A stretch of 64,000 nucleotides of DNA from Minisyncoccota bacterium. GTDB lineage: Bacteria; Patescibacteriota; Minisyncoccia; UBA6257; 2-01-FULL-56-20. Positions 15,648-52,633 of this stretch are shown in pieces. Each line of letters starts with the position of its first letter. Position 1 is the stretch's first letter. Under the pieces are notes generated by a model. It searched no databases and had not been told where the DNA came from. It worked only from the letters and a program-made list of their open reading frames with translations. Location of the stretch: positions 1,757-65,756 of the forward strand of contig DATAXS010000006.1 of the NCBI GenBank assembly GCA_036266715.1, written 5' to 3'. Made by a program: the position numbers and the translations under genes.

Positions 15648-17702
15648 ATGAAAAAAATAATTGTGTTCGTGTGCTTTGTGTTCGCAGGTTTTTTTGTTCA
15701 CCAAAATGTCATGAACACGGCGCACGCCGATTCGCCCTTCACTATGGCGGTGCAGGGGTCGGCGACTGCGGCCGTTGGCCAGGGGGACGGCCTTTCCGCA
15801 TCCGTCACGGACAGCGGCAATTCCGTTTCGAATGTGATCGTAGACGTGGAAGTGCACGACGCATCCGGCGCCAGGGTGTTCCAGCAGTTCTTCTCCGGCC
15901 AGAATTTCGGTTCGGGCCAAACGCAGAATTACAGCGCGGGATGGACGCCGACCGCGAACGGCACGTATACCGTGGATGCGGGCGTTTTTAATGCCGATTG
16001 GTCGCAGCTTCTTTCCTGGGAACAGGCCGGGCTTACGGTAACGGTGGGCGGCGCGGCGGCGCCGAGCTTCACCGCGACGGCAAGTGCGAGCCCCGCCGCG
16101 CCGACCACAGGCCAGCCCGTCAACGTGTCGTTCAACGTGCAGGACGGCAACGCGCCGGCGAACGGCATGATCGTGGATTTTGAGGTCTATGGTCCCTCCG
16201 GCGCAAAGGCATACCAGCAGTTCTTTTCCGGCCAAAACTTTTCCGCGGGTCAAACGAATTCCTACACGGCGTCGTGGACGCCGAGCGCCACGGGGAACTA
16301 TACCGTGGACGTAGGGGTCTTCACGGCAAATTGGGCAGAGACCGTTTCCTGGACAAATGTTTTGGGAACGACGGTCGCGCAATCAAATCCGCAGTTTAAT
16401 GTGGCGGCAAACGTGAACCCCACCGCTCCCACGCCCGGGCAGGCAGTGTCGCTCGGCGCGAACGTCACGGATGCCGGCGGCCCGGTGTCAAACGTCATCA
16501 CCGACCTTGAGGTGCATGATGCTTCCGGCAACAAAGTGTTCCAGCAATTCTTTACCGGCCAGAACTTTTCTGCGGGCGGGACCCAGTCCTACAACGTGAA
16601 TTGGACGCCATCCTCGGCAAGCACCTACACGTTTGACGTCGGCATATTCAATGCCGATTGGTCCCAACTTCTTTCCTGGAATGCGGCGGAAAATATCAAT
16701 GTGGCAACGGCCGCGACGGAAGATCCACCCGCGCCAACCCCAACCCCGACCCCGACCCCGGCACCAACACCGACTCCCACTCCCACGCCGGTGGCCACTC
16801 CTGTCGCGAATTCGGTGTTGAGTGCGACGGTAGCGCTTTTGAACAGCCCCTTTTACGTTGACCCGGATTCGCAAGCAGCGGTTTCCGCAAGTTCGCTTAC
16901 CTCAAGCGATCCAACGGACGCGGCATTGATCAATATTATTGCCACTGAGCCGACGGGTGTCTGGTTCGGCGGCTGGAACACGGACGTGTACCAGGATGTG
17001 AACGCGCTTGTGAGCGCCGCGCAGAATACGGGGAAGACCCCGGTGCTCGTGGCGTACAACATTCCCAATCGTGACTGCGGCGGGTATTCCGCCGGCGGCG
17101 CGCAAACTCCGGCCGCATACCAATCGTGGATACGATCTTTTGCGAGCGGCATTGGCAACCGGAGCGCGATCGTGATCCTTGAGCCGGACGGGCTCGCCAA
17201 CATGGATTGCCTTTCGGCAGCGGACCAGGTGACGCGGGAAGGACTTTTGAACTACGCGGTGGGCATCTTGAAATCGCTTGGCAATACCAAAGTCTATCTT
17301 GATGCGGGCAATCCGAACTGGATATCCGCGGGGGACATGGCTCCGCGGCTTGAGGCCGCCGGCATCGCGCAGGCGGATGGATTTTCGCTCAACGTCTCCA
17401 ACTTCTATACGACGTCGGCAAACGTGGCATTCGGCGAATCGCTCTCGGCGCTCGTAGGCGGCAAGCACTTTGTGGTGGACACAAGCCGCAACGGCAACGG
17501 TTCCTTGAACGGCGAGTGGTGCAACCCAGCGGGCATGGCGCTCGGCAACACGCCGACGTTCAAGACGGGAAATCCGTTAGTAGATGCATATCTTTGGATC
17601 AAGCCGCCCGGCGAATCGGATGGGACGTGCAACGGCGGACCTTCGGCGGGGACATGGTGGTCGCAGTATGCGGTAGGTTTGGCGCAAGCAGCGGGTTACT
17701 GA
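15648..17702 (+). CDS. secreted GH6 cellulase with four N-terminal beta-sandwich repeats and a Pro/Thr linker
   Basis: Signal peptide. Four ~105-aa repeats ('VFQQFFSGQNF..GQTQ.Y...WTP...GTYTVD.GVF.ADWS'). Linker 'PAPTPTPTPTPAPTPTPTPTPVATP'. GH6 motifs 'YNIPNRDCGG', 'ILEPDGLAN', 'YLDAGNPNW', 'WIKPPGESDG'. Confidence 0.85.
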   Translation: MKKIIVFVCFVFAGFFVHQNVMNTAHADSPFTMAVQGSATAAVGQGDGLSASVTDSGNSVSNVIVDVEVHDASGARVFQQFFSGQNFGSGQTQNYSAGWTPTANGTYTVDAGVFNADWSQLLSWEQAGLTVTVGGAAAPSFTATASASPAAPTTGQPVNVSFNVQDGNAPANGMIVDFEVYGPSGAKAYQQFFSGQNFSAGQTNSYTASWTPSATGNYTVDVGVFTANWAETVSWTNVLGTTVAQSNPQFNVAANVNPTAPTPGQAVSLGANVTDAGGPVSNVITDLEVHDASGNKVFQQFFTGQNFSAGGTQSYNVNWTPSSASTYTFDVGIFNADWSQLLSWNAAENINVATAATEDPPAPTPTPTPTPAPTPTPTPTPVATPVANSVLSATVALLNSPFYVDPDSQAAVSASSLTSSDPTDAALINIIATEPTGVWFGGWNTDVYQDVNALVSAAQNTGKTPVLVAYNIPNRDCGGYSAGGAQTPAAYQSWIRSFASGIGNRSAIVILEPDGLANMDCLSAADQVTREGLLNYAVGILKSLGNTKVYLDAGNPNWISAGDMAPRLEAAGIAQADGFSLNVSNFYTTSANVAFGESLSALVGGKHFVVDTSRNGNGSLNGEWCNPAGMALGNTPTFKTGNPLVDAYLWIKPPGESDGTCNGGPSAGTWWSQYAVGLAQAAGY

Positions 17703-25025: not shown

Positions 25026-26495
25026 ATGTTTATAAAAACAAAAAAGTGGAAAAAAGTGGTCTTGTCGCTCGTGCTCGGCGTGGCAGTGGTGGCGCTCGGT
25101 GCCTTTGCCGTCACGCGGGCGCAGATGGTCTCCTCGCTCTCCATCGCTTCGTCTTCGGCGAGCGACCAGAGTTCCCTGCTTTCGGTCACCTCGGTGGATG
25201 AGACCACGGATACCAGCTTGCTCACGGGGAATGCCACGAGTTCCGTTTCGGTGGGGCTCATAAGCCAGGACGGCGCGAACACGAACGGTGTTTCCGTCGC
25301 GGTCCAGCTTCTGCAGAACGGCAACGTGATCCAGCAGGCCGTCTACAGCAACCAGAACATTCTCCATGAGAGCCCGCAGACATATTGGCTTTCGTTCTCC
25401 GGCGTTCCGAACGGAACGTACACCGTTGCGGTCGTGGTCAATAACCCCGACGGCAGCGTGAACGCGTCCTTTAGCAATCTCGGCTCGGTCGTAGTGTCAG
25501 GGAGTACCGTTACCTCAACCTCCACGACTACTTCCACCGCCGCGAACGCGATCCAGATAATACCCACGAGCTTGCCCGACGCGACCGCTTCCAGTTCGTA
25601 TTCTGAGACGCTTACCGCCTCGACTACGATGAGCGGTCCCTTCACGTGGAGCCTTGCTTCCGGGACGTTGCCGGACGGCCTTTCGCTTGATACGTCGGCC
25701 ACGAGCAGCATGGCTACGCTCTCCGGCACGCCGACCACGGTAGGGTCATCCACGTTCGCGGTGAATGTGGCGAACGCCACGAGTTCCGCGTCGCAGACGT
25801 ACACGCTGAGCGTTGATGCGCCCGCGAGCGGCACGCCCACGCCAACCTATGCGGTTCAGATAGTTCCCGCGTCGCTTCCCGATGCGACGGTAAGCAGTTC
25901 GTATTCGCAAACGCTCACCGCCTCCACGTCGGCAAGCACGTCATTCGCGTGGAACGTCGCTTCCGGGACGTTGCCGTCCGGGCTTAGCCTCAATACGGGC
26001 ATAAGCAGCACGACGGCCACCATCACGGGCACGCCGACTGCAGCAGGATCGTCCACGTTTACCATCGGCGCGACCGACGGGACGAACTCGTCTACGGAGT
26101 CATATACCTTGAGCGTGGATCCGTCGTCAACGACAACCACCACCACGAGCACGGCGACATCTTCCGGCGACCTCGCCATAAATAGCGTCTATGAGCCCGC
26201 GACGAGCGTGAATGCAAGCGATACGCAAACCACCATCACCCCATATCTCGTTTCCACGAACGGTGCGAATGTGGGCAATGTGACGGTGCAAGTAGCGCTT
26301 CAGCAAAACGGTACGGTGATTGATTCGCAGTCCTATGGCAACCAGGATATTCTCCACGAATACCCGCAGGCCTATCCGCTCACCACGTCGTCCACGCTTC
26401 CCGCCGGGACCTACACGATCGCCGTCACGGTCTATAACGCCGATAATTCGGTGAATGCTTCCTTCCCAAACCTTGGGACTCTTACGGTGACATAG
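25026..26495 (+). CDS. secreted surface protein: beta-sandwich - 2x He_PIG (putative Ig) - beta-sandwich
   Basis: Signal peptide. Two 'LPDAT.SSSYS.TLTAS....F.W..ASGTLP.GLSL.T......T..GTPT..GSSTF' repeats. The terminal domains resemble the GH6 repeat ('NGTYTVAVVVNNPDGSVNASF' and 'AGTYTIAVTVYNADNSVNASF'). Confidence 0.7.
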   Translation: MFIKTKKWKKVVLSLVLGVAVVALGAFAVTRAQMVSSLSIASSSASDQSSLLSVTSVDETTDTSLLTGNATSSVSVGLISQDGANTNGVSVAVQLLQNGNVIQQAVYSNQNILHESPQTYWLSFSGVPNGTYTVAVVVNNPDGSVNASFSNLGSVVVSGSTVTSTSTTTSTAANAIQIIPTSLPDATASSSYSETLTASTTMSGPFTWSLASGTLPDGLSLDTSATSSMATLSGTPTTVGSSTFAVNVANATSSASQTYTLSVDAPASGTPTPTYAVQIVPASLPDATVSSSYSQTLTASTSASTSFAWNVASGTLPSGLSLNTGISSTTATITGTPTAAGSSTFTIGATDGTNSSTESYTLSVDPSSTTTTTTSTATSSGDLAINSVYEPATSVNASDTQTTITPYLVSTNGANVGNVTVQVALQQNGTVIDSQSYGNQDILHEYPQAYPLTTSSTLPAGTYTIAVTVYNADNSVNASFPNLGTLTVT

Positions 26496-28879: not shown

Positions 28880-30469
28880 TCAACTTCCGTTGAGTGCCGC
28901 GCGGGTCCTTGGGCCTACGGAGCCCCAGCCCGTGGTTCCCGGGTTCCCCGAACAAATGATCGCTTGGGCGCACTGGAATTGCTCTACCGCTTTTTGGGTC
29001 AGTGCGCCAAAATAGCCCGTGTCGTATCCTTGCCCAAGGTATCCGTCCTCAATAAGGAATATTTGCAAGTTTTTTACGGCGTTATTACTGAGGCCAAAGT
29101 AGAGTGCGGTGCTGAAATAGAATAATGGCGGCGTGGCGATCGTAGTGTTGTTTGTGGTGCCGGAATTCGGACTCGGGGTAGCTGGGGACGTCGGTGTGGG
29201 AGTGAGATAGAGGTTATTTATAGAAACGGGTGGTGGAGTGGCTGCCGGGGTTGGGGTTGTGACGGGATTTTGTGCGAGCGTGGTGGCCGAGACGGTATTG
29301 GGCGCCGAGATGTTGCCCGATGCGTCATATGCCTGGACGGTGTAGGAATATGTGGTGTCGGTGGCGAGGCCGGTATCTTGATATGAGGTCGAGGTTGCGG
29401 AGCCAAGTGCGGCGATCTCGCCCCCGTTCCGGTCAAGATAATATCCCACGACTCCCACGTTGTCCGTGGACGCCTGCCAGGTGAGATCTATTTCCGAAGC
29501 GGAAACCGGGGTGGCGTAAAAATAATGGGGGATGGAGGGCGGCGTCGTGTCCGCCGCGAGTGTAGCTGCTTGTACAAGGTAACTTTGTGCGGAGACGTTC
29601 CCTGCCGCATCAAACGCGGCGACGGTATATGCGTACGTGGTTGCCGGGGAAAGGCCGGTGCTCGCGTAGGCGGTCGGCGTGGAAGAAACGGTGGCGATCT
29701 CCGCGCTGTTCAGATATATATAGTAGCCCACGACTCCCACATTGTCCGTGGACGCCTGCCAGGTGAGATCTATTTCCGTGGGGGACTTTACCGCGAGATG
29801 CAGCAGGGAAGGCATCGAAGGAGGCGTGAGGTCGGACAGGGTGCTCGCGTGCATCGTTTGCGAGGTAGCAGTGTTCCCGGCCGCATCAAACGCCACAAGC
29901 GCATAGGTAAAAGAATTGCCCGGCAAAAGTCCCACGTCGTCATACGTGGTTCCCGAAATCGGAGTTGGGAGAGGGACTTTGTTGCCGTTTCTGTAGAGAT
30001 AATATCCCACTACGCCAATATTGTCCGTGGAAGCAGTCCATGTGAGCATCACGGAAGAGGTCGCCGGCACGAGCGAGATCCAGACGGGCGCGGTGGGCGG
30101 GGTGACATCTTTTATGATGGTGACGGGTGCGGACGCCGTCGATTGCGGTGACATTGCGCCTGCCGCGGTAAACGCGGCAACGGTATAGGTGTAGGTGCCG
30201 GGCGGAGCGGTATCAATGATATTCGCGTTCGGCGTTTCCGTGACGAATCCGCCATTACGATAAACGTAATATCCCACGACGGCGCTGTCCGTAGATGCCG
30301 CCCACGAAACACTGACTTGCTGGAGCGGCACGGTGGGACTCGCCGAAACGCTCGTTGGTGCGGCCGGCACGGCGCTCACGGACTGTGCCTGCGCAAGGCC
30401 GGCAGCGGTAAAGAGGACAAAAAGCCCCGCGAGGGAAAGGACCAAAAGCGTTTTTCTTCGGCCGCTCAT
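28880..30469 (-). CDS. secreted protein with five fibronectin type III repeats and a C-terminal PG_binding_1 domain
   Basis: Signal peptide 'MSGRRKTLLVLSLAGLFVLFTAAGLAQA'. Five ~94-aa units ('W.ASTDN.GVVGYY.YRNG......T.Y.D.GL...T.Y.Y.V.A.DAAGN.S'). C-terminal 'AVKNLQIFLIEDGYLGQGYDTGYFGALTQKAVEQFQ'. ATG 30469 chosen. Confidence 0.75.
   Translation of the reverse strand: MSGRRKTLLVLSLAGLFVLFTAAGLAQAQSVSAVPAAPTSVSASPTVPLQQVSVSWAASTDSAVVGYYVYRNGGFVTETPNANIIDTAPPGTYTYTVAAFTAAGAMSPQSTASAPVTIIKDVTPPTAPVWISLVPATSSVMLTWTASTDNIGVVGYYLYRNGNKVPLPTPISGTTYDDVGLLPGNSFTYALVAFDAAGNTATSQTMHASTLSDLTPPSMPSLLHLAVKSPTEIDLTWQASTDNVGVVGYYIYLNSAEIATVSSTPTAYASTGLSPATTYAYTVAAFDAAGNVSAQSYLVQAATLAADTTPPSIPHYFYATPVSASEIDLTWQASTDNVGVVGYYLDRNGGEIAALGSATSTSYQDTGLATDTTYSYTVQAYDASGNISAPNTVSATTLAQNPVTTPTPAATPPPVSINNLYLTPTPTSPATPSPNSGTTNNTTIATPPLFYFSTALYFGLSNNAVKNLQIFLIEDGYLGQGYDTGYFGALTQKAVEQFQCAQAIICSGNPGTTGWGSVGPRTRAALNGS
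29445..29496. repeat. intragenic 52-bp repeat, copy 1
   Basis: Identical to 29727-29778 except for one base (g/a). The two copies are 282 bp apart, which is one Fn3 unit. Confidence 0.85.
29727..29778. repeat. intragenic 52-bp repeat, copy 2
   Basis: See 29445-29496. Confidence 0.85.
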
Positions 30470-43823: not shown

Positions 43824-44861
43824 TTATTCCTCCGTGGCGGACTTTGCGCTTTCCTTGCCGTGCGGCTTTTGCGCGCCGCCCTTGCCCATTGCGTGCGAGT
43901 CCACTTCGTAGCTCGTGTTCTGCGCTTCAAAGAAATTGACGAGCTCAAAGACATCGGTTGCGCCGCTCATCCACTTTGCCGGGTTCTTGGCGCCATAGTG
44001 CGCCTTCATGCCGAGTTCTTCCAGGCGGCGGTCGGCCACGTACTGCACATATTGGTTTACGTAATCGGCGTTCAAGCCGAGGATGCCGCGCGGGAAAAGA
44101 TCTTTGTTGTAGGCATTCTCAAGGTCAACGCCTTCAATGATGATATTGCGGATCTCGTCGGCGAAGTCCTTCGTGAGCAGGTCGGGATTTTCTTCCAGAA
44201 TGTTCTGGATGAGGTTCATGCCGAACTTGAGGTGGAGCGATTCGTCGCGGATGACCCAGTTGATCATGGAACCGAAGTTGCGGAGCTGGTTCCGCTGGCG
44301 GAACGAGAGCACCACCATGAAGCCGCTGTAAAACCAGATGCCTTCCATGACGAGATTTGTGGCCACAAGGTTGCGGATGAAATCCTTTTTGCCTTCGGTG
44401 GAGGCAATATCAAGCGTGTCTTCCGTCATGCGCTTCATGTAGCGGTTGATGTAGTTTTCCTTCGCCTTCATGGACGGCGTTTCAAGGTGGAGATTAAACA
44501 CGTTCGTGCGGTCCAAGGGGAAGGTTTCCAAAACATATTCAAACGCCACGCAGTGGTTGGCCTCTTCCCACATCTGCTTTGCAAGATAGAGGTGGCACTC
44601 GGGGGACTTGAGGTAGGGATAAATGCCGAGCGCAATGGAGCGGTTCACGATGAGCTCGCCCGGATTAAAGAACGCCATCAGGAACTTTACGGCGTGGCGT
44701 TCGTCTTCCGTCATCTTTTCCCAGTCGTAGAGATCTTCTTTGAGCGCGATCTCGTGCGGGAACCACGTGTTGCGAACCGCCTGCTGGTAGAGGTCATACG
44801 CCCACTGATATTGAATTGGATGGAGGTTCATGTCCTCCGGGGAGGCTTTTCCTATCAACAT
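43824..44861 (-). CDS. nrdB: class I ribonucleotide reductase small subunit
   Basis: Di-iron ligand motifs 'EEANHCVAFEYV' and 'IRDESLHLKFG', plus 'GIWFYSGF'. Confidence 0.9.
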   Translation of the reverse strand: MLIGKASPEDMNLHPIQYQWAYDLYQQAVRNTWFPHEIALKEDLYDWEKMTEDERHAVKFLMAFFNPGELIVNRSIALGIYPYLKSPECHLYLAKQMWEEANHCVAFEYVLETFPLDRTNVFNLHLETPSMKAKENYINRYMKRMTEDTLDIASTEGKKDFIRNLVATNLVMEGIWFYSGFMVVLSFRQRNQLRNFGSMINWVIRDESLHLKFGMNLIQNILEENPDLLTKDFADEIRNIIIEGVDLENAYNKDLFPRGILGLNADYVNQYVQYVADRRLEELGMKAHYGAKNPAKWMSGATDVFELVNFFEAQNTSYEVDSHAMGKGGAQKPHGKESAKSATEE

Positions 44862-47591: not shown

Positions 47592-47881
47592 AGGTTTATT
47601 TTTATTTAATGTTTTCCGGGTACGTTCAGTATATCACTCGGATATATTAAAAAATCGTGAAAACTGTGCATATCTTTTATTTTTTGGGCGCATATTTGGC
47701 ACGTGCGGAAAACCCGCGATTTTGCGCAGAAAAAAGGTGCGAAACGCATTACGAGAGTGATTTTTTGTGACAAAGGCAAGGGCTTCGGGACTTGACTCCG
47801 TATTGCGCGGCGCTTTTTAAGATAGTTTTAATGGCCGATGTGCTATGGTTGCTCTGCGCGAAAAAGAAAATCGGCGCGCAC

Positions 47882-49633
47882 ATGCAGGAAAGCTTTAACA
47901 ATATGGAAAATAATTTTGATGAGGCGCCTTTGGCGCAGGAAAAATTAAAAAATAATAAAAAAACGGTCATCTACGCGCTCGTCGCGGGCATTTTTGCGGC
48001 TGCGACCGGGTATTACGTGGCATTTCCTGCCGGCGCGGACGATATTCTACAGCACAGCGCCGCAATTGCCGTGGCGTCATGGCAAAATGTGTTCGGCGGC
48101 GCACCGCCCGTCGATTCTTCGTGGGGAAACGAGCTTGCGGAGGGAGACGATGCGCCGTCGGGGACGATTGCGGACGACGGCGATGCCTCTTCCGCGGCGC
48201 AAGACGTGCTGAGCGGCACTAATTTCGGCCAGGGCGATAATGCGCCCGCAAAAAGTTCGCGCGTGACGGAAAAGAGCAGTCCCACTGCAAAGGCAACTCC
48301 CAAGGCAAGCGCCAAGACTTCGGCAAATATTTTGGCGAGCGGATCGTCTCCTGTCGGATCATTGTCGGCATCCTCACCCGCGCTATCATCATCGCCAACG
48401 CCAACGTTGCAGGCGGCCGCACCATCCCCACAACCTTCGTCACCGCCCGTGGTTGTACCCACGTGCACCGTTTCCGTTTCGGCAAATAGTTCCCACCAAA
48501 TTATTTTGAACGAGATTGCGTGGATGGGTTCGGTCGCCGCGGCGGAGGAAACCGCGAGTGCGGCGAGCGAGCGCGAATGGATGGAGCTTAAAAATATTTC
48601 CGGAAGTGCTGTGGATCTTTCCGAGTGGCAAATTTTGGATTCTTTGGGAAATATAAAATTTGTTTTTCCTTCCGGCGCGACGATCGGCGCAAACGGTTTT
48701 TATCTGCTCTCGCGCGGCGGGGATGCGGTGGCGGGCATTTCTCCGGACGCGGCCTACGTCGGCGGACTTTCTAACGGCGGCGATGTGCTGGAACTTTTTG
48801 ATGCCGCGTGCGCCGCCTCCGATCTTATTGACGCTTCGGCGGGATGGCCTGCGGGCAATAACACCACCAAGCAAACGCTCGAGCGCGATGCGGACGGCGT
48901 GGGGTGGCATACGAGCATTTCTCCCGGCGGCACGCCAAAGGCGGAAAATTCGGTTGTGATGACCCCTGCATCTTCGCCTGCGGCGAATATCGTGATAGAC
49001 CCGGTGCCGAGCGCCGCGCTTACTCCCACTCCAACGCCAACTCCTACCGATTCGCCCGTGCCCACGCCAGCGCCCGCGCCCGCAGCAGTTTCAATGTCGA
49101 CGCCCACCCCAGCGCCCATATCTACGCCCACGTCGACACCCACACCTGCTCGTACTTCTTCTGGTTCACCAAACCATCTCGTGATCGCTGCCGTCATGAT
49201 CGCTGGTGCTTCCTCAGCCAATGATTTTGTGAAGATATTCAATCCTACTGCCGCCGCGGTGGATGTGAGCGGGTGGAAGATCCATAAAAAGACGAGCACG
49301 GGAGGGGATGATTCATTGAGGGAGTTTGCGTCCGGAAGTTCGGTAGCACCCGGCGGTTATTTCACTTGGGCAAACTCGGCGGACGGATTCGGTGATGCAA
49401 CACACGCAAACGCAACGAGCACGGAAACGCTCGCGGCGGACAACAGCGTGGCGCTCTTTGATGCGAGCGGGACCCTTGTGGACGCGGTCGCGTGGGGAAC
49501 CGGCACAAACCAATATGTAGAAACGGCGGCGTATCCGACGGACCCTTTGGCAAATCAAACGCTCGCGCGAATATTTTTGAACGGCGCGATCGTGGACACC
49601 GATAATAATGCAAACGATTTTACTATCCAATAA
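47882..49633 (+). CDS. secreted protein with two lamin-tail domains (LTD) and Pro/Thr/Ser linkers
   Basis: TM anchor. LTD1 'IILNEIAWMGS...EWMELKNISGSAVDLSEWQI'. LTD2 'LVIAAVMIAGASSANDFVKIFNPTAAAVDVSGWKI'. Linker 'TPTPTPTPTDSPVPTPAPAPAA'. ATG 47882 preferred over TTG 47792. Confidence 0.7.
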   Translation: MQESFNNMENNFDEAPLAQEKLKNNKKTVIYALVAGIFAAATGYYVAFPAGADDILQHSAAIAVASWQNVFGGAPPVDSSWGNELAEGDDAPSGTIADDGDASSAAQDVLSGTNFGQGDNAPAKSSRVTEKSSPTAKATPKASAKTSANILASGSSPVGSLSASSPALSSSPTPTLQAAAPSPQPSSPPVVVPTCTVSVSANSSHQIILNEIAWMGSVAAAEETASAASEREWMELKNISGSAVDLSEWQILDSLGNIKFVFPSGATIGANGFYLLSRGGDAVAGISPDAAYVGGLSNGGDVLELFDAACAASDLIDASAGWPAGNNTTKQTLERDADGVGWHTSISPGGTPKAENSVVMTPASSPAANIVIDPVPSAALTPTPTPTPTDSPVPTPAPAPAAVSMSTPTPAPISTPTSTPTPARTSSGSPNHLVIAAVMIAGASSANDFVKIFNPTAAAVDVSGWKIHKKTSTGGDDSLREFASGSSVAPGGYFTWANSADGFGDATHANATSTETLAADNSVALFDASGTLVDAVAWGTGTNQYVETAAYPTDPLANQTLARIFLNGAIVDTDNNANDFTIQ

Positions 49634-51347: not shown

Positions 51348-51437
51348 AAATTTTCAATTATCAATTTTGCAATTTTCATTCAAAACACAATTTCCAAATG
51401 AAAATTTTCAAATGAAAAATTGTAAAATTACAAACAA
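51348..51437 (+). repeat. AT-rich intergenic cassette, copy 1 (upstream of rpiB)
   Basis: About 88 bp, nearly identical to 52545-52633 (a few mismatches seen by eye). Contains phased AATTTTCA motifs and a TAAAAT -10-like hexamer (51423-51428) 9 nt before the ATG. Confidence 0.8.
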
Positions 51438-51890
51438 ATGACTATTTACATCGGCGCCGATCACGGCGGATTCGCTCTTAAAGAAAAATTGAAGGCTGCG
51501 CTTAAGGATGAGGCGTATGACGTGGTGGACATGGGTGCCGCGGCGCGCGTGGAAGACGACGATTATCCGGATTACGCAACGGCCGTGGCAAAAAAGATCC
51601 AGGATGATCCGTTGAATGCGCGGGGTATCGTGATCTGCCGTTCCGGGTTCGGCGTGGACATTGTGGCGAATAAATATGATGGCGTGCGTGCAGCGCTCGC
51701 GACGTCACCGGAACACGCATACCAGGGCCGCCATGACGACGACGTGAACGTGCTCGCGCTCGCGGCGGACTTTATAGACGAAGCAGTGGCGATCAAGGCG
51801 GCAAAGGTATTCCTGATCACGCCTTTTGCAAAGGAGGACAAATATTCGCGCCGATTGGAGAAGATCGTGAAGATAGAAGCGACGAACTGA
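51438..51890 (+). CDS. rpiB: ribose-5-phosphate isomerase B
   Basis: 'IYIGADHGGFALKEKL', 'GIVICRSGFGVDIVANK', 'HDDDVNVLAL'. Confidence 0.9.
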   Translation: MTIYIGADHGGFALKEKLKAALKDEAYDVVDMGAAARVEDDDYPDYATAVAKKIQDDPLNARGIVICRSGFGVDIVANKYDGVRAALATSPEHAYQGRHDDDVNVLALAADFIDEAVAIKAAKVFLITPFAKEDKYSRRLEKIVKIEATN

Positions 51891-51896
51891 CGCGCC

Positions 51897-52538
51897 ATGG
51901 AGGTTATTCCCGTCATTAATTGTCCGGACGCCGCGTGCGCGCGGGAAAAGATAGAGACCTTGAAAAAATTTTTACCCGCTAACCGCTTTGTGCACCTTGA
52001 CGTGACGGACGGCATTTTTGCCGCGCATACGACGTGGAATGACCCGATGGGATGGAAGGGGCTTGGCGCGCCTTTTCAGCTTGAAGTGCATTTGATGGTG
52101 GAAGACCCGGGCGACGTGCTTGACGCGTGGCTCGCGGCGGGGATGAGGCGGTGCATTGTGCACGCGGAGGCCGTGCGGACGGCGGCCTGCCGCGCGCTCA
52201 TTGCGCAGTGCGCGGAAATGGGCGCGACGGTGATGCTTTCTTCCAACCCCGGCACGCCGGGCGCCGACCTCTTGCCCTATATCAAACTATTTTCCGCGTT
52301 CCAGGTCCTCTCTGTTGCGCCGGGCGCGGCGGGACAGGAATTTTTGGCATTTACGCTGGACAAAATATCGTTCATTCGCGCGAATGCGCCCGATGCTATA
52401 ATTGAAGTGGACGGGGGAATGAACCCCGATGCCGCATCTCTTGTGAAAAAGGCGGGTGCGGACGTCGTTGTTTCTTCCAATTATATTTTTAGCGCGAAGG
52501 ATCCAAAGGCGGCATACGAGGCATTGGAGCATGTCTAG
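51897..52538 (+). CDS. rpe: ribulose-phosphate 3-epimerase (divergent)
   Basis: 'VHLDVTDG', 'LEVHLMV', 'CIVHAEA', 'VLSVAPGAAGQEF', 'IEVDGG'. Confidence 0.75.
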   Translation: MEVIPVINCPDAACAREKIETLKKFLPANRFVHLDVTDGIFAAHTTWNDPMGWKGLGAPFQLEVHLMVEDPGDVLDAWLAAGMRRCIVHAEAVRTAACRALIAQCAEMGATVMLSSNPGTPGADLLPYIKLFSAFQVLSVAPGAAGQEFLAFTLDKISFIRANAPDAIIEVDGGMNPDAASLVKKAGADVVVSSNYIFSAKDPKAAYEALEHV

Positions 52539-52544
52539 CATCTT

Positions 52545-52633
52545 AATTTTCAATTATCAATTTTGCAATTTTCATTCAAGACACAATTTCCAAATGAAAA
52601 TTTTCAAATTGAAAATTGTAAAATTACAAACAA
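52545..52633 (+). repeat. AT-rich intergenic cassette, copy 2 (upstream of tktN)
   Basis: See copy 1. Ends in the same '...attgtaaaattacaaacaa' directly before the ATG. Confidence 0.8.

Follow-up and report, generated by a model that had tools for sequence, protein, structure and literature searches.

The question raised by this stretch of DNA, a 64,000-nucleotide window from a Minisyncoccota bacterium (contig DATAXS010000006.1; positions are those of the window unless a locus is named), is why two almost identical AT-rich cassettes stand immediately before the start codons of rpiB and tktN, and what they share with a third, diverged copy before an AI-2E transporter gene. The preliminary description of the window took the cassette for a promoter giving near-leaderless mRNAs and suggested that it might co-regulate the pentose-phosphate genes. 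The three cassettes, called A, B and C here (Table 1), are members of a family of intergenic palindromes that is dispersed across the ultra-small Patescibacteria, the Candidate Phyla Radiation (CPR). The reading that we favour, by a modest measure, is that of a dispersed repeat comparable to enterobacterial repetitive intergenic consensus (ERIC) sequences and transposable elements of the miniature inverted-repeat type (MITEs), co-opted as a promoter for near-leaderless mRNAs; both the promoter activity of the element and its mode of copying are what we infer from its sequence and placement.

Cassettes A and B, compared with the ATG included (51349-51440 and 52545-52636), are identical at 89 of 92 positions (97%), with mismatches at 51384 (A/G), 51414 (G/T) and 51415 (A/G) only. 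Their GC contents are 0.18 and 0.19, and that of copy C is 0.18, against 0.55 for the whole window, in full agreement with the near-identical AT-rich copies first described. The diverged third copy also stands: C is 61% identical to A in an ungapped comparison and its left arm matches the hidden Markov model (HMM) of the family (E = 7e-7; 5e-8 in a second search). A 21-base degenerate pattern is common to A, B and C, with 0 chance matches expected in the window, and AATTTTCA occurs 16 times in the window compared with 4 expected, 12 of the 16 lying inside the three cassettes. In each case a gap of 0-6 nt separates the upstream stop codon from the cassette, which then reaches the start codon of the next gene. 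The gene order, assigned with Pfam, is GAPDH / A / rpiB, rpe / B / tktN and M16 peptidase / C / AI-2E transporter. The 3' ends of A and B read ...TTG-TAAAAT-T-ACAAACAA-ATG, without a Shine-Dalgarno (SD) site, so that the geometry noted earlier (TAAAAT 9 nt from the ATG, no SD site, a cassette extending to the start codon) is confirmed for both.

A and B form imperfect hairpins (RNA fold compared with shuffled sequence, z = -2.06 and -3.54, respectively) and contain short palindromes such as AATTTTCAAATTGAAAATT, and C forms no hairpin (z = +0.9). The right arm of A and B is without the last two units able to pair with AATTTTCAATTATC. This common truncation, together with the shared ACAAACAA tail, indicates that a single right-truncated derivative, tail included, was duplicated as a unit to give both A and B, which are recent copies. 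The recent copying proposed in the preliminary description is thus upheld, by the 97% identity and by the absence of the cassettes from the same junctions in relatives. Copy C is an older, left-arm-only copy. The AATTT units of cassette A start 14, 8, 18 and 14 nt apart, the spacing is irregular in both A and B, and the period of the family is 7-8 bp, which leaves no support for the units phased at 10-11 bp that had been suggested.

To define the family, one genome per bacterial or archaeal species was scanned with the pattern AATTTTCA-N12-16-AATTTTCATTCAA. The scan returned at least 119 stretches, in most of which the match corresponds to the left arm of a long inverted repeat rich in AT, and a duplication private to one genome was rejected on this result. 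A family HMM was built from 32 aligned full elements, and a rescan of the 925 kb of collected loci (handles beginning with L) gave 127 non-overlapping elements, comprising 69 full elements, 51 left arms only and seven right arms only; in 27 loci two or three copies lie within 8 kb. The family is a non-coding, AT-rich, imperfect intergenic palindrome of 90-140 bp with sharp termini (AATTTTCA...TGAAAATT) and arms of about 45 nt that are about 73% complementary. Each arm consists of approximately five to six units of 7-8 bp, AATTTTC(A) on the left and its mirror TTGAAAAT on the right, and the family is marked by an irregular unit, CATTCAA / TTGATTG, within the signature CAATTTTCATTCAA. The consensus runs from AATTTTCAATTTTCAATTTTCAATTTTCATTCAATTTTCAAT through a loop, often with GTTTGAAAATT, to CATTGAAAATTGATTGAAAATTGAAAATTGAAAATTGAAAATT. 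In being non-coding, 90-140 bp long and built of inverted arms the element has the dimensions of a MITE; as an imperfect intergenic palindrome that occurs in both orientations and keeps one consensus across distant hosts at non-orthologous sites, it also resembles ERIC.

The hosts of the validated elements are nearly all genomes labelled as CPR, from at least 12 named lineages. Saccharibacteria (25 elements) and Peribacteria (22) are joined by Microgenomates (Davies-, Curtiss-, Woese-, Roizman- and Levybacteria), by Parcubacteria (Moranii-, Falkow-, Nealson- and Andersenbacteria and Paceibacterota) and by Berkelbacteria. The HMM does not recognise the pattern matches in genomes such as Flavobacterium and Pelagibacter, which are therefore regarded as chance matches. 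A scan of viral contigs gave one match, in the metagenome-assembled genome (MAG) of a giant virus and probably due to chance, and a phage-borne element was accordingly rejected. No relevant Rfam match was found in the window (gathering threshold), in eight full-element loci (E-value threshold) or in eight loci with cargo (gathering threshold), and a literature search that included exact sequence strings and the topics of CPR and MITEs, leaderless expression, promoters and 23S_rRNA_IVP found no description of the element. The family is apparently undescribed so far and a member of no named family.

True elements are also present in MAGs with other labels, namely 'uncultured Gammaproteobacteria' (binchicken; L005, L011, L012, L031, L035, L044, L072, L075, L085, L098, L100 and L115) 'Ignavibacteria CoA_1_bin.73' (L024, L038, L053 and L102) and 'Planctomycetota' (L073). 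Either these labels or bins are wrong or the element extends beyond the CPR. A 23S rRNA gene in a Parcubacteria MAG is preceded, at a distance of about 340 nt, by a full element (L033 6101-6217).

Homologues of TktN and of the AI-2E transporter identify the organism as a Paceibacterota (Parcubacteria) MAG. The history of the three cassettes was read from the same junctions in relatives. The spacer between rpe and tktN measures 0-24 nt in seven relatives (TktN 84-90% identical) and 95 nt in the window; an eighth relative, L123, has no called rpe stop and is an exception in this comparison. None of 80 loci from metagenomes (TktN 62-89% identity, 393 kb) carries the element upstream of tktN, and a single weak HMM match occurs anywhere in them. 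In two relatives, the rpiB ATG follows 6 nt after a plain GATATAAT. The same two relatives have a reverse-strand open reading frame (ORF) between GAPDH and rpiB without a homologue in the window, which places cassette A at an indel junction. The spacer between the M16 peptidase and AI-2E transporter genes is 9, 26 and 36 nt long in relatives compared with 77 nt in the window, and two of these relatives have one to three AATTTTCAA-like units there, oriented as in C, which could be remnants or slippage products, or could point to a targeting of sites that look like the end of the element. The B and C junctions are thus filled in the window, and in relatives whose flanking proteins are 76-90% identical the same sites measure 0-36 nt and give no HMM match. 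As no recognisable element is present at the three junctions in any relative examined, comparison of orthologous sites shows that A, B and C were gained in the lineage of the window. The conservation in sister genomes that a private regulatory cassette might have led one to look for is therefore not seen.

Some further observations concern these and similar junctions. Element-free junctions often hold a single AATTTTCA- or AATTTTAC-like motif just past the stop codon (L206 1805-1830, L208 2305-2340, L092 ~4560), which may have been left behind by an element, may seed the growth of an array or may mark a preferred target. Other AT-rich palindromes built of heptamer arrays (GGAATTT, GGAAATT, TTTTGAN, AATTCTT) lie upstream of tktN in L133, L140, L167, L189, L174 and L175, some of them extending to the tktN ATG, and several sequence families seem to share this architecture. 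Short-read assemblies are broken by the repeat: L001 (Logan SRR11836411, 1221 nt), in which the rpiB-rpe segment was assembled independently, starts inside A and ends inside B. Many TktN relatives are on contigs of 1-2.6 kb.

Once acquired, the element appears to be retained with little change. Between species, three pairs of filled orthologous sites give identities of 96.3, 94.4 and 94.6% for the element compared with 69-82, 67-72 and 92% for the flanking DNA, and in two of the three pairs the element stands out as a sharp island of conservation. These alignments show the element to be under strong sequence constraint. Over the full length, the identity is 0.78 within genomes and 0.73 between genomes, a pattern suggestive of an old family kept close to a single consensus, not of a recent burst within particular genomes. 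Amplification specific to one genome is not a feature of the family as a whole, the exception being the A/B pair of the window at 97%.

The element shows no preference for gene starts or gene ends, and such a preference was rejected. Its junctions are co-directional in 76% of cases, convergent in 12.5% and divergent in 11.4%, compared with 71, 13.7 and 15% for background junctions in the same loci (p = 0.56), and relative to co-directional neighbours 24 full elements have the same orientation and 21 the opposite one. The spacing within the junctions is asymmetric: the median spacer is 4 nt on the stop side, where 0-5 nt is usual, and 9 nt on the start side (paired Wilcoxon test, p = 0.0009). 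From the outward end (...TGAAAATT) to the start codon the distance is 6-9 nt in 17 of 45 cases and 4-5 nt in none of the 45, and a gap of 6-9 nt leaves no space for an SD site. Of the 13 arm-only copies with the TGAAAATT end toward a gene start, seven are separated from the ATG by 5-17 nt. In L033, L049 and L007 a terminal TTGAAA or TTGATA lies 16-17 nt upstream of a TANNNT in the flanking sequence. The preliminary description had named placement at positions unrelated to gene starts, as in a small MITE-like repeat, as a reason to give up the promoter, and the outcome is divided: the dispersal, the two orientations and the occurrence at convergent junctions at background rate speak against a promoter, and the non-random distance to start codons speaks for one.

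The genes downstream are varied housekeeping genes (PGK, L20, RpoA, CysRS, RuvC, RecO, EF-G and YbeY among them), and a regulon was rejected on the grounds of this functional diversity. Listing the genes that follow the cassette, as proposed earlier, leads in the scan of one genome per species to more than 100 CPR loci and diverse genes. Co-regulation of the pentose-phosphate genes fares no better, with the element upstream of tktN in 0 of 80 loci and at none of the seven closest junctions, and unrelated housekeeping genes following it elsewhere. A single gene recurs: topA lies directly downstream in three independent lineages (L042, L035 and L049/L074; Falkowbacteria, an unverified MAG and Saccharibacteria), three of about 60 downstream genes surveyed compared with about 0.07 expected for a single-copy gene, and this recurrence may link the element to the control of supercoiling.

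The distance to the start codon acquires meaning from the way in which genes of this group appear to be expressed. Upstream of tktN in relatives, TANNNT peaks 6-7 nt before the ATG and an SD-like site is present in three of 58, and element-free relatives have a TATAAT-like hexamer 6-8 nt before the ATGs of both rpiB and tktN. At many gene starts of the window, too, the SD site is missing and a TATAAT-like hexamer precedes the ATG by 6-9 nt (43824-44861(-), 50304, 53509, 55019, 49660); other genes of the window carry a clear AGGAGG. With so many starts of this kind, leaderless-type expression looks general in this Paceibacterota genome and its relatives. For A and B, the -10 of a leaderless sigma-70 promoter is matched by TAAAAT at 9 nt from an ATG that lacks an SD site. 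The best -35 candidates are TGAAAA or ATGAAA at 18-19 nt, and by consensus arithmetic a regular 7-bp array sets TTGAAA and GAAAAT three units apart, with 17 bp between them.

On this basis, the following mechanism may be proposed. The outward terminal units TTGAAAAT resemble sigma-70 hexamers, with TTGAAA as a putative -35 and (G/T)AAAAT (TAAAAT in the window) as a putative -10. When the element inserts between two genes, the arm beside a gene start would serve as the promoter of that gene, and with a transcription start some 6-9 nt beyond the last hexamer the mRNA would be leaderless or have a leader of 1-3 nt, which would be the normal mode in this lineage. Copies co-opted as promoters in this manner would then be retained by purifying selection. 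The promoter of near-leaderless mRNAs put forward in the preliminary description thus survives in part: the geometry is that seen in relatives and outward ends lie 6-9 nt from starts, and a canonical -35/-10 pair is missing from A and B.

A number of observations weigh against a mobile repeat co-opted as a promoter. With regard to mobility, no direct repeat of 3 bp or more flanks the 69 full elements, a palindromic AATT or TA duplication would be indistinguishable from the ends of the element, and the filled and empty pairs are too diverged for a footprint. No transposase lies between any pair of arms in the 925 kb of loci, where the only cargo is a 23S_rRNA_IVP ORF or G+C-rich hairpins. A and B share a truncated end and a tail, which canonical two-ended transposition does not explain; the identity within genomes is barely above that between genomes, which is unusual for a recently amplified MITE; and the AATTTTCAA-like units at the C junction of relatives may leave room for growth and decay of arrays in situ. 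With regard to promoter function, A and B yield no -35/-10 pair in a strict sigma-70 scan, and their -35 region is weak. Elements occur at background rate at convergent junctions (12.5% compared with 13.7%), where a promoter is useless, and in a co-directional context the other arm would drive antisense transcription of the gene upstream. Arms that face a stop codon likewise have no gene to drive. Solo arms in the 'same orientation', copy C among them, point away from the downstream gene, and C is without a suitably placed -10. Finally, the test of constraint comprises three orthologous pairs only, and the exact search pattern selected one arm of every sampled element.

Several other explanations were weighed against this reading, and the pairing between the arms bears on the first of them, an RNA-level hairpin in polycistronic mRNA that would terminate transcription in both directions, stabilise the mRNA or separate cistrons as a processing site for RNase III. 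It draws support from the better-than-shuffled folding of A and B, from the position of elements 0-5 nt past stop codons and from a 23S_rRNA_IVP (four-helix-bundle) ORF (PF05635 E = 1.8e-17; TIGR02436 E = 5e-23) that the arms bracket, in the manner of an intervening-sequence stem, in four loci with the ORF intact and a fifth with it decayed; such ORFs are known in CPR rRNA insertions (PMC11270868). However, the arms of one element are 72.5% complementary and those of different elements 73.0%, only about 73-75% of the stem positions pair and the mismatches comprise 139 G:T and 136 A:C, with no bias on the transcribed strand. The arms therefore do not co-vary, and selection does not act on base pairing, which the tests of wobble asymmetry and cross-element complementarity rejected for RNA and DNA alike. 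Each arm instead follows an oriented consensus, which favours recognition of each arm by a protein and speaks against a structured RNA, a terminator or a site for RNase III. Neither a G+C-rich stem nor a U-tract of an intrinsic terminator was called in the cassettes, the stems of which are almost pure A/T, and a terminator was rejected for this reason. A known RNA family was also rejected, there being no relevant Rfam match in the window or in the loci searched, no compensatory changes and no excess of G:U. Single arms make up many of the copies, among them C, for which no fold is seen, and the versions with the IVP ORF, in which the arms are about 350 nt apart, are free-standing between protein genes and never inside an rRNA gene, so that an rRNA intervening sequence was rejected as well. 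An RNA hairpin is thus unlikely. A binding array for a conserved host factor other than RNA polymerase, whether a nucleoid protein, an insulator protein, a cruciform that responds to supercoiling or a translational enhancer of the A/U-rich S1/Csp type on SD-less genes, is in better agreement with an oriented heptamer consensus kept in each arm across the whole superphylum, with copies more conserved than the flanking coding sequence and with ends 6-9 nt before SD-less start codons, the usual SD spacing. The topA gene downstream in three independent lineages and the same layout in TAACTGA arrays (upstream of start codons, ribosome-binding sites rare, no downstream theme; PMC4679880) point the same way. 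We nevertheless consider it doubtful: no candidate protein is at hand, elements at convergent junctions and arms facing stop codons have no gene to enhance, a 7-bp period is out of helical phase and the topA association amounts to three cases in about 60 downstream genes. Somewhat closer to the favoured reading, and tentatively held as a possible alternative to it, is a non-selfish, CPR-wide cis-regulatory module, in which outward promoter or protein-binding heptamers would be read by a common host factor (RNA polymerase holoenzyme or another DNA- or RNA-binding protein) to build or rewire SD-less leaderless expression in genomes with very few transcription factors of their own. This fits a purifying selection stronger than that on neighbouring protein genes, and also the occasional IVP cargo, which ties the element to the rRNA intervening sequences of the CPR. 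Such a module may respond to supercoiling, given its AT-richness, its cruciform potential and its recurrence upstream of topA.

Two further explanations concern the origin of the cassettes. A private, locally duplicated promoter or operator cassette, through which a dedicated regulator would control rpiB and tktN together, would account for two copies that are 97% identical, that each abut a pentose-phosphate gene and that contain short palindromes such as the one noted above. The same element is nonetheless found beside unrelated genes in more than 100 CPR loci and is absent from every examined relative with the rpiB-rpe-tktN cluster; copy C precedes a transporter gene, and no regulator gene is adjacent, which makes this origin scarcely credible. 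Growth in situ is also very improbable. Here, promoter-like AATTTTCAA / TTGAAAATT seeds would expand and contract by slippage as heptamer microsatellites, with the arrays convergent rather than copied, as might be suspected from the AATTTTCAA-like units, one to three in number, that relatives have at the junction of copy C, from the heptamer palindromes of different units at the tktN junction (L133, L140, L167, L189) and from the nearly equal identities within and between genomes. What slippage does not yield is mirror-image arms; moreover, the irregular signature unit, the order of the units and the loop motif GTTTGAAA are common across phyla, and the 97% identity of A and B includes the non-repetitive loop.

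The cargo of the element is of two kinds. Besides the five loci with the IVP ORF, the arms in three high-GC Saccharimonadales loci enclose a G+C-rich stretch of 110-160 nt with hairpin repeats of the GTCATCCTGAACTTGTTTCAGGATC type. The positions of both kinds are given in Table 1 with those of the cassettes.

Table 1. Positions of the cassettes and related features in the window and of cargo-carrying elements in other loci.
Feature	Position	Strand	Description
Cassette A	51349-51437	+	GAPDH stop (ends 51347) to rpiB ATG (51438)
Cassette A core	51349..51429	+	Right-truncated family element; HMM match at model positions 1-49
Cassette A left arm	51349-51383	+	AATTTTCAATTATCAATTTTGCAATTTTCATTCAA; then short loop and partial right arm ending GTAAAATT
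Cassette A -10-like hexamer TAAAAT (putative)	51423..51428	+	9 nt before rpiB ATG (51438)
Cassette A 8-nt tail ACAAACAA	51430..51437	+	Between element and rpiB start codon; same in cassette B
Cassette B	52545-52633	+	Stop of rpe-like gene (52538) to tktN ATG (52634)
Cassette B core	52545..52625	+	Second copy of the truncated derivative in A; HMM match at model positions 1-75
Cassette B -10-like hexamer TAAAAT (putative)	52619..52624	+	9 nt before tktN ATG (52634)
Cassette B 8-nt tail ACAAACAA	52626..52633	+	Abuts tktN start codon
Copy C	62389..62465	+	Left-arm-only family member with signature CAATTTTCATTCAA; fills M16 peptidase / AI-2E transporter spacer; no hairpin
Lone AATTTTCA unit	54919..54926	+	Divergent spacer upstream of tktC; no HMM match
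Composite element with IVP ORF	L031 6551-7015		ORF intact
Composite element with IVP ORF	L034 2463-2945		ORF intact
Composite element with IVP ORF	L055 4855-5298		ORF intact
Composite element with IVP ORF	L088 4788-5231		ORF intact
Composite element with IVP ORF	L004 2023-2484		ORF decayed
Element with G+C-rich cargo	L071 5841-6121		Second repeat family nested in first
Element with G+C-rich cargo	L087 2693-2925		Second repeat family nested in first
Element with G+C-rich cargo	L103 3384-3604		Second repeat family nested in first

Among known systems, the closest in kind, by analogy, are the small palindromic intergenic repeats of the ERIC or intergenic repeat unit (IRU) and Correia types. ERIC sequences are imperfect intergenic palindromes of about 120-130 bp that occur in either orientation and in truncated and internally expanded variants, with no transposase and no clear mechanism of spread; they are G+C-rich and keep one consensus across distant hosts, at chromosomal sites that differ by lineage. 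Likened to these features, the CPR element is a repeat of the same kind, being an intergenic imperfect palindrome found in either orientation at lineage-specific sites. It would not belong to the same family, and it differs in its sequence, which is probably unrelated, in being very AT-rich, in its tandem units of 7-8 bp and in a distribution that is superphylum-wide rather than limited to two families, and also in that its arms do not co-vary and that it abuts start codons at a promoter-like distance. The Correia elements of Neisseria, MITEs also known as Correia repeat enclosed elements (CREE), are intergenic, about 100-150 bp long, have inverted ends and outward promoters, and vary in presence or absence between strains; they have a TA target duplication and an integration host factor (IHF) site and are confined to one genus, with high copy number and high identity within the genome. 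The CPR element shares the small size, intergenic location and inverted ends, and the donation of promoters is known for Correia elements, whereas the TA duplication, the IHF site, the restriction to a genus and the high copy number with high within-genome identity are not seen in it.

Stems of rRNA intervening sequences are cut by RNase III. The likeness of the CPR element to intervening sequences with a 23S_rRNA_IVP ORF lies in the arms that bracket a PF05635/TIGR02436 ORF (four intact loci and one decayed), and the difference in the location of the CPR copies between protein genes and in the lack of an ORF in most family members. Leaderless-type sigma-70 promoters of Actinobacteria and Deinococcus have a TANNNT 6-7 nt before the start codon. 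The cassettes resemble them in a -10-like hexamer 6-9 nt before the ATG and the lack of an SD site, as do element-free relatives at the same genes. They differ in that their hexamer belongs to a dispersed repeat, as its last unit, and in that a clear -35 is missing from A and B. In the architecture of the arms, the closest system is that of the TAACTGA heptamer direct repeats of Beggiatoaceae, cyanobacteria and Bacteroidetes, which lie a few nucleotides upstream of gene starts where ribosome-binding sites are rare, with no theme among the downstream genes (PMC4679880). Their distribution is wide and patchy with no evident transfer mechanism, and a post-transcriptional role has been proposed (PMC4679880). 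Unlike the CPR element, they form direct arrays only, without a mirror-image second arm, have another unit sequence and come with no reported test of constraint at orthologous sites. The CPR element is set apart from all of these by its sequence, its breadth across a superphylum, the lack of co-variation between its arms, its conservation above that of neighbouring genes and its IVP cargo.

Other features of the window were recorded in passing. The lone AATTTTCA unit before tktC is probably not a family element; within 54919-54948 it overlaps a promoter-like TTTTCA-16-TACAAT, and the opposite strand of the same stretch reads TTGATT-16-TATAAT for the reverse ORF. Between tktN and tktC, which are split (window 53509-54894, compared with L121 5881-7077), lie two ORFs, of which the first (176 aa) is kept in relatives; the second is a 218 aa ORF on the + strand in relatives, and in the window its place is taken by an unrelated reverse ORF (54310-54894) with no Pfam match. 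The SpoU methylase of relatives is missing from the window, as is their reverse ORF between GAPDH and rpiB. Tandem coding repeats are present in large ORFs at 15803-16679, 25548-26059 and 29411-30280, with periods of about 330, 303 and 280 nt, respectively, and these ORFs probably encode repeat-domain surface proteins. An LTD-domain protein is encoded at 47792-49633.

Patescibacteria account for a large share of bacterial diversity and have tiny genomes with few regulators, and to our knowledge almost nothing is known of how they control gene expression. A single non-coding element that extends from Saccharibacteria to Parcubacteria would be a rare handle on both promoter architecture and genome plasticity in the CPR. 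The repeat can also help to flag MAGs with suspect taxonomic labels, and its copies are candidate native promoters for genetic tools in cultivated Saccharibacteria. Should it turn out to be a selfish repeat only, it would still be a new family of unusual breadth and would raise the question of what moves it.

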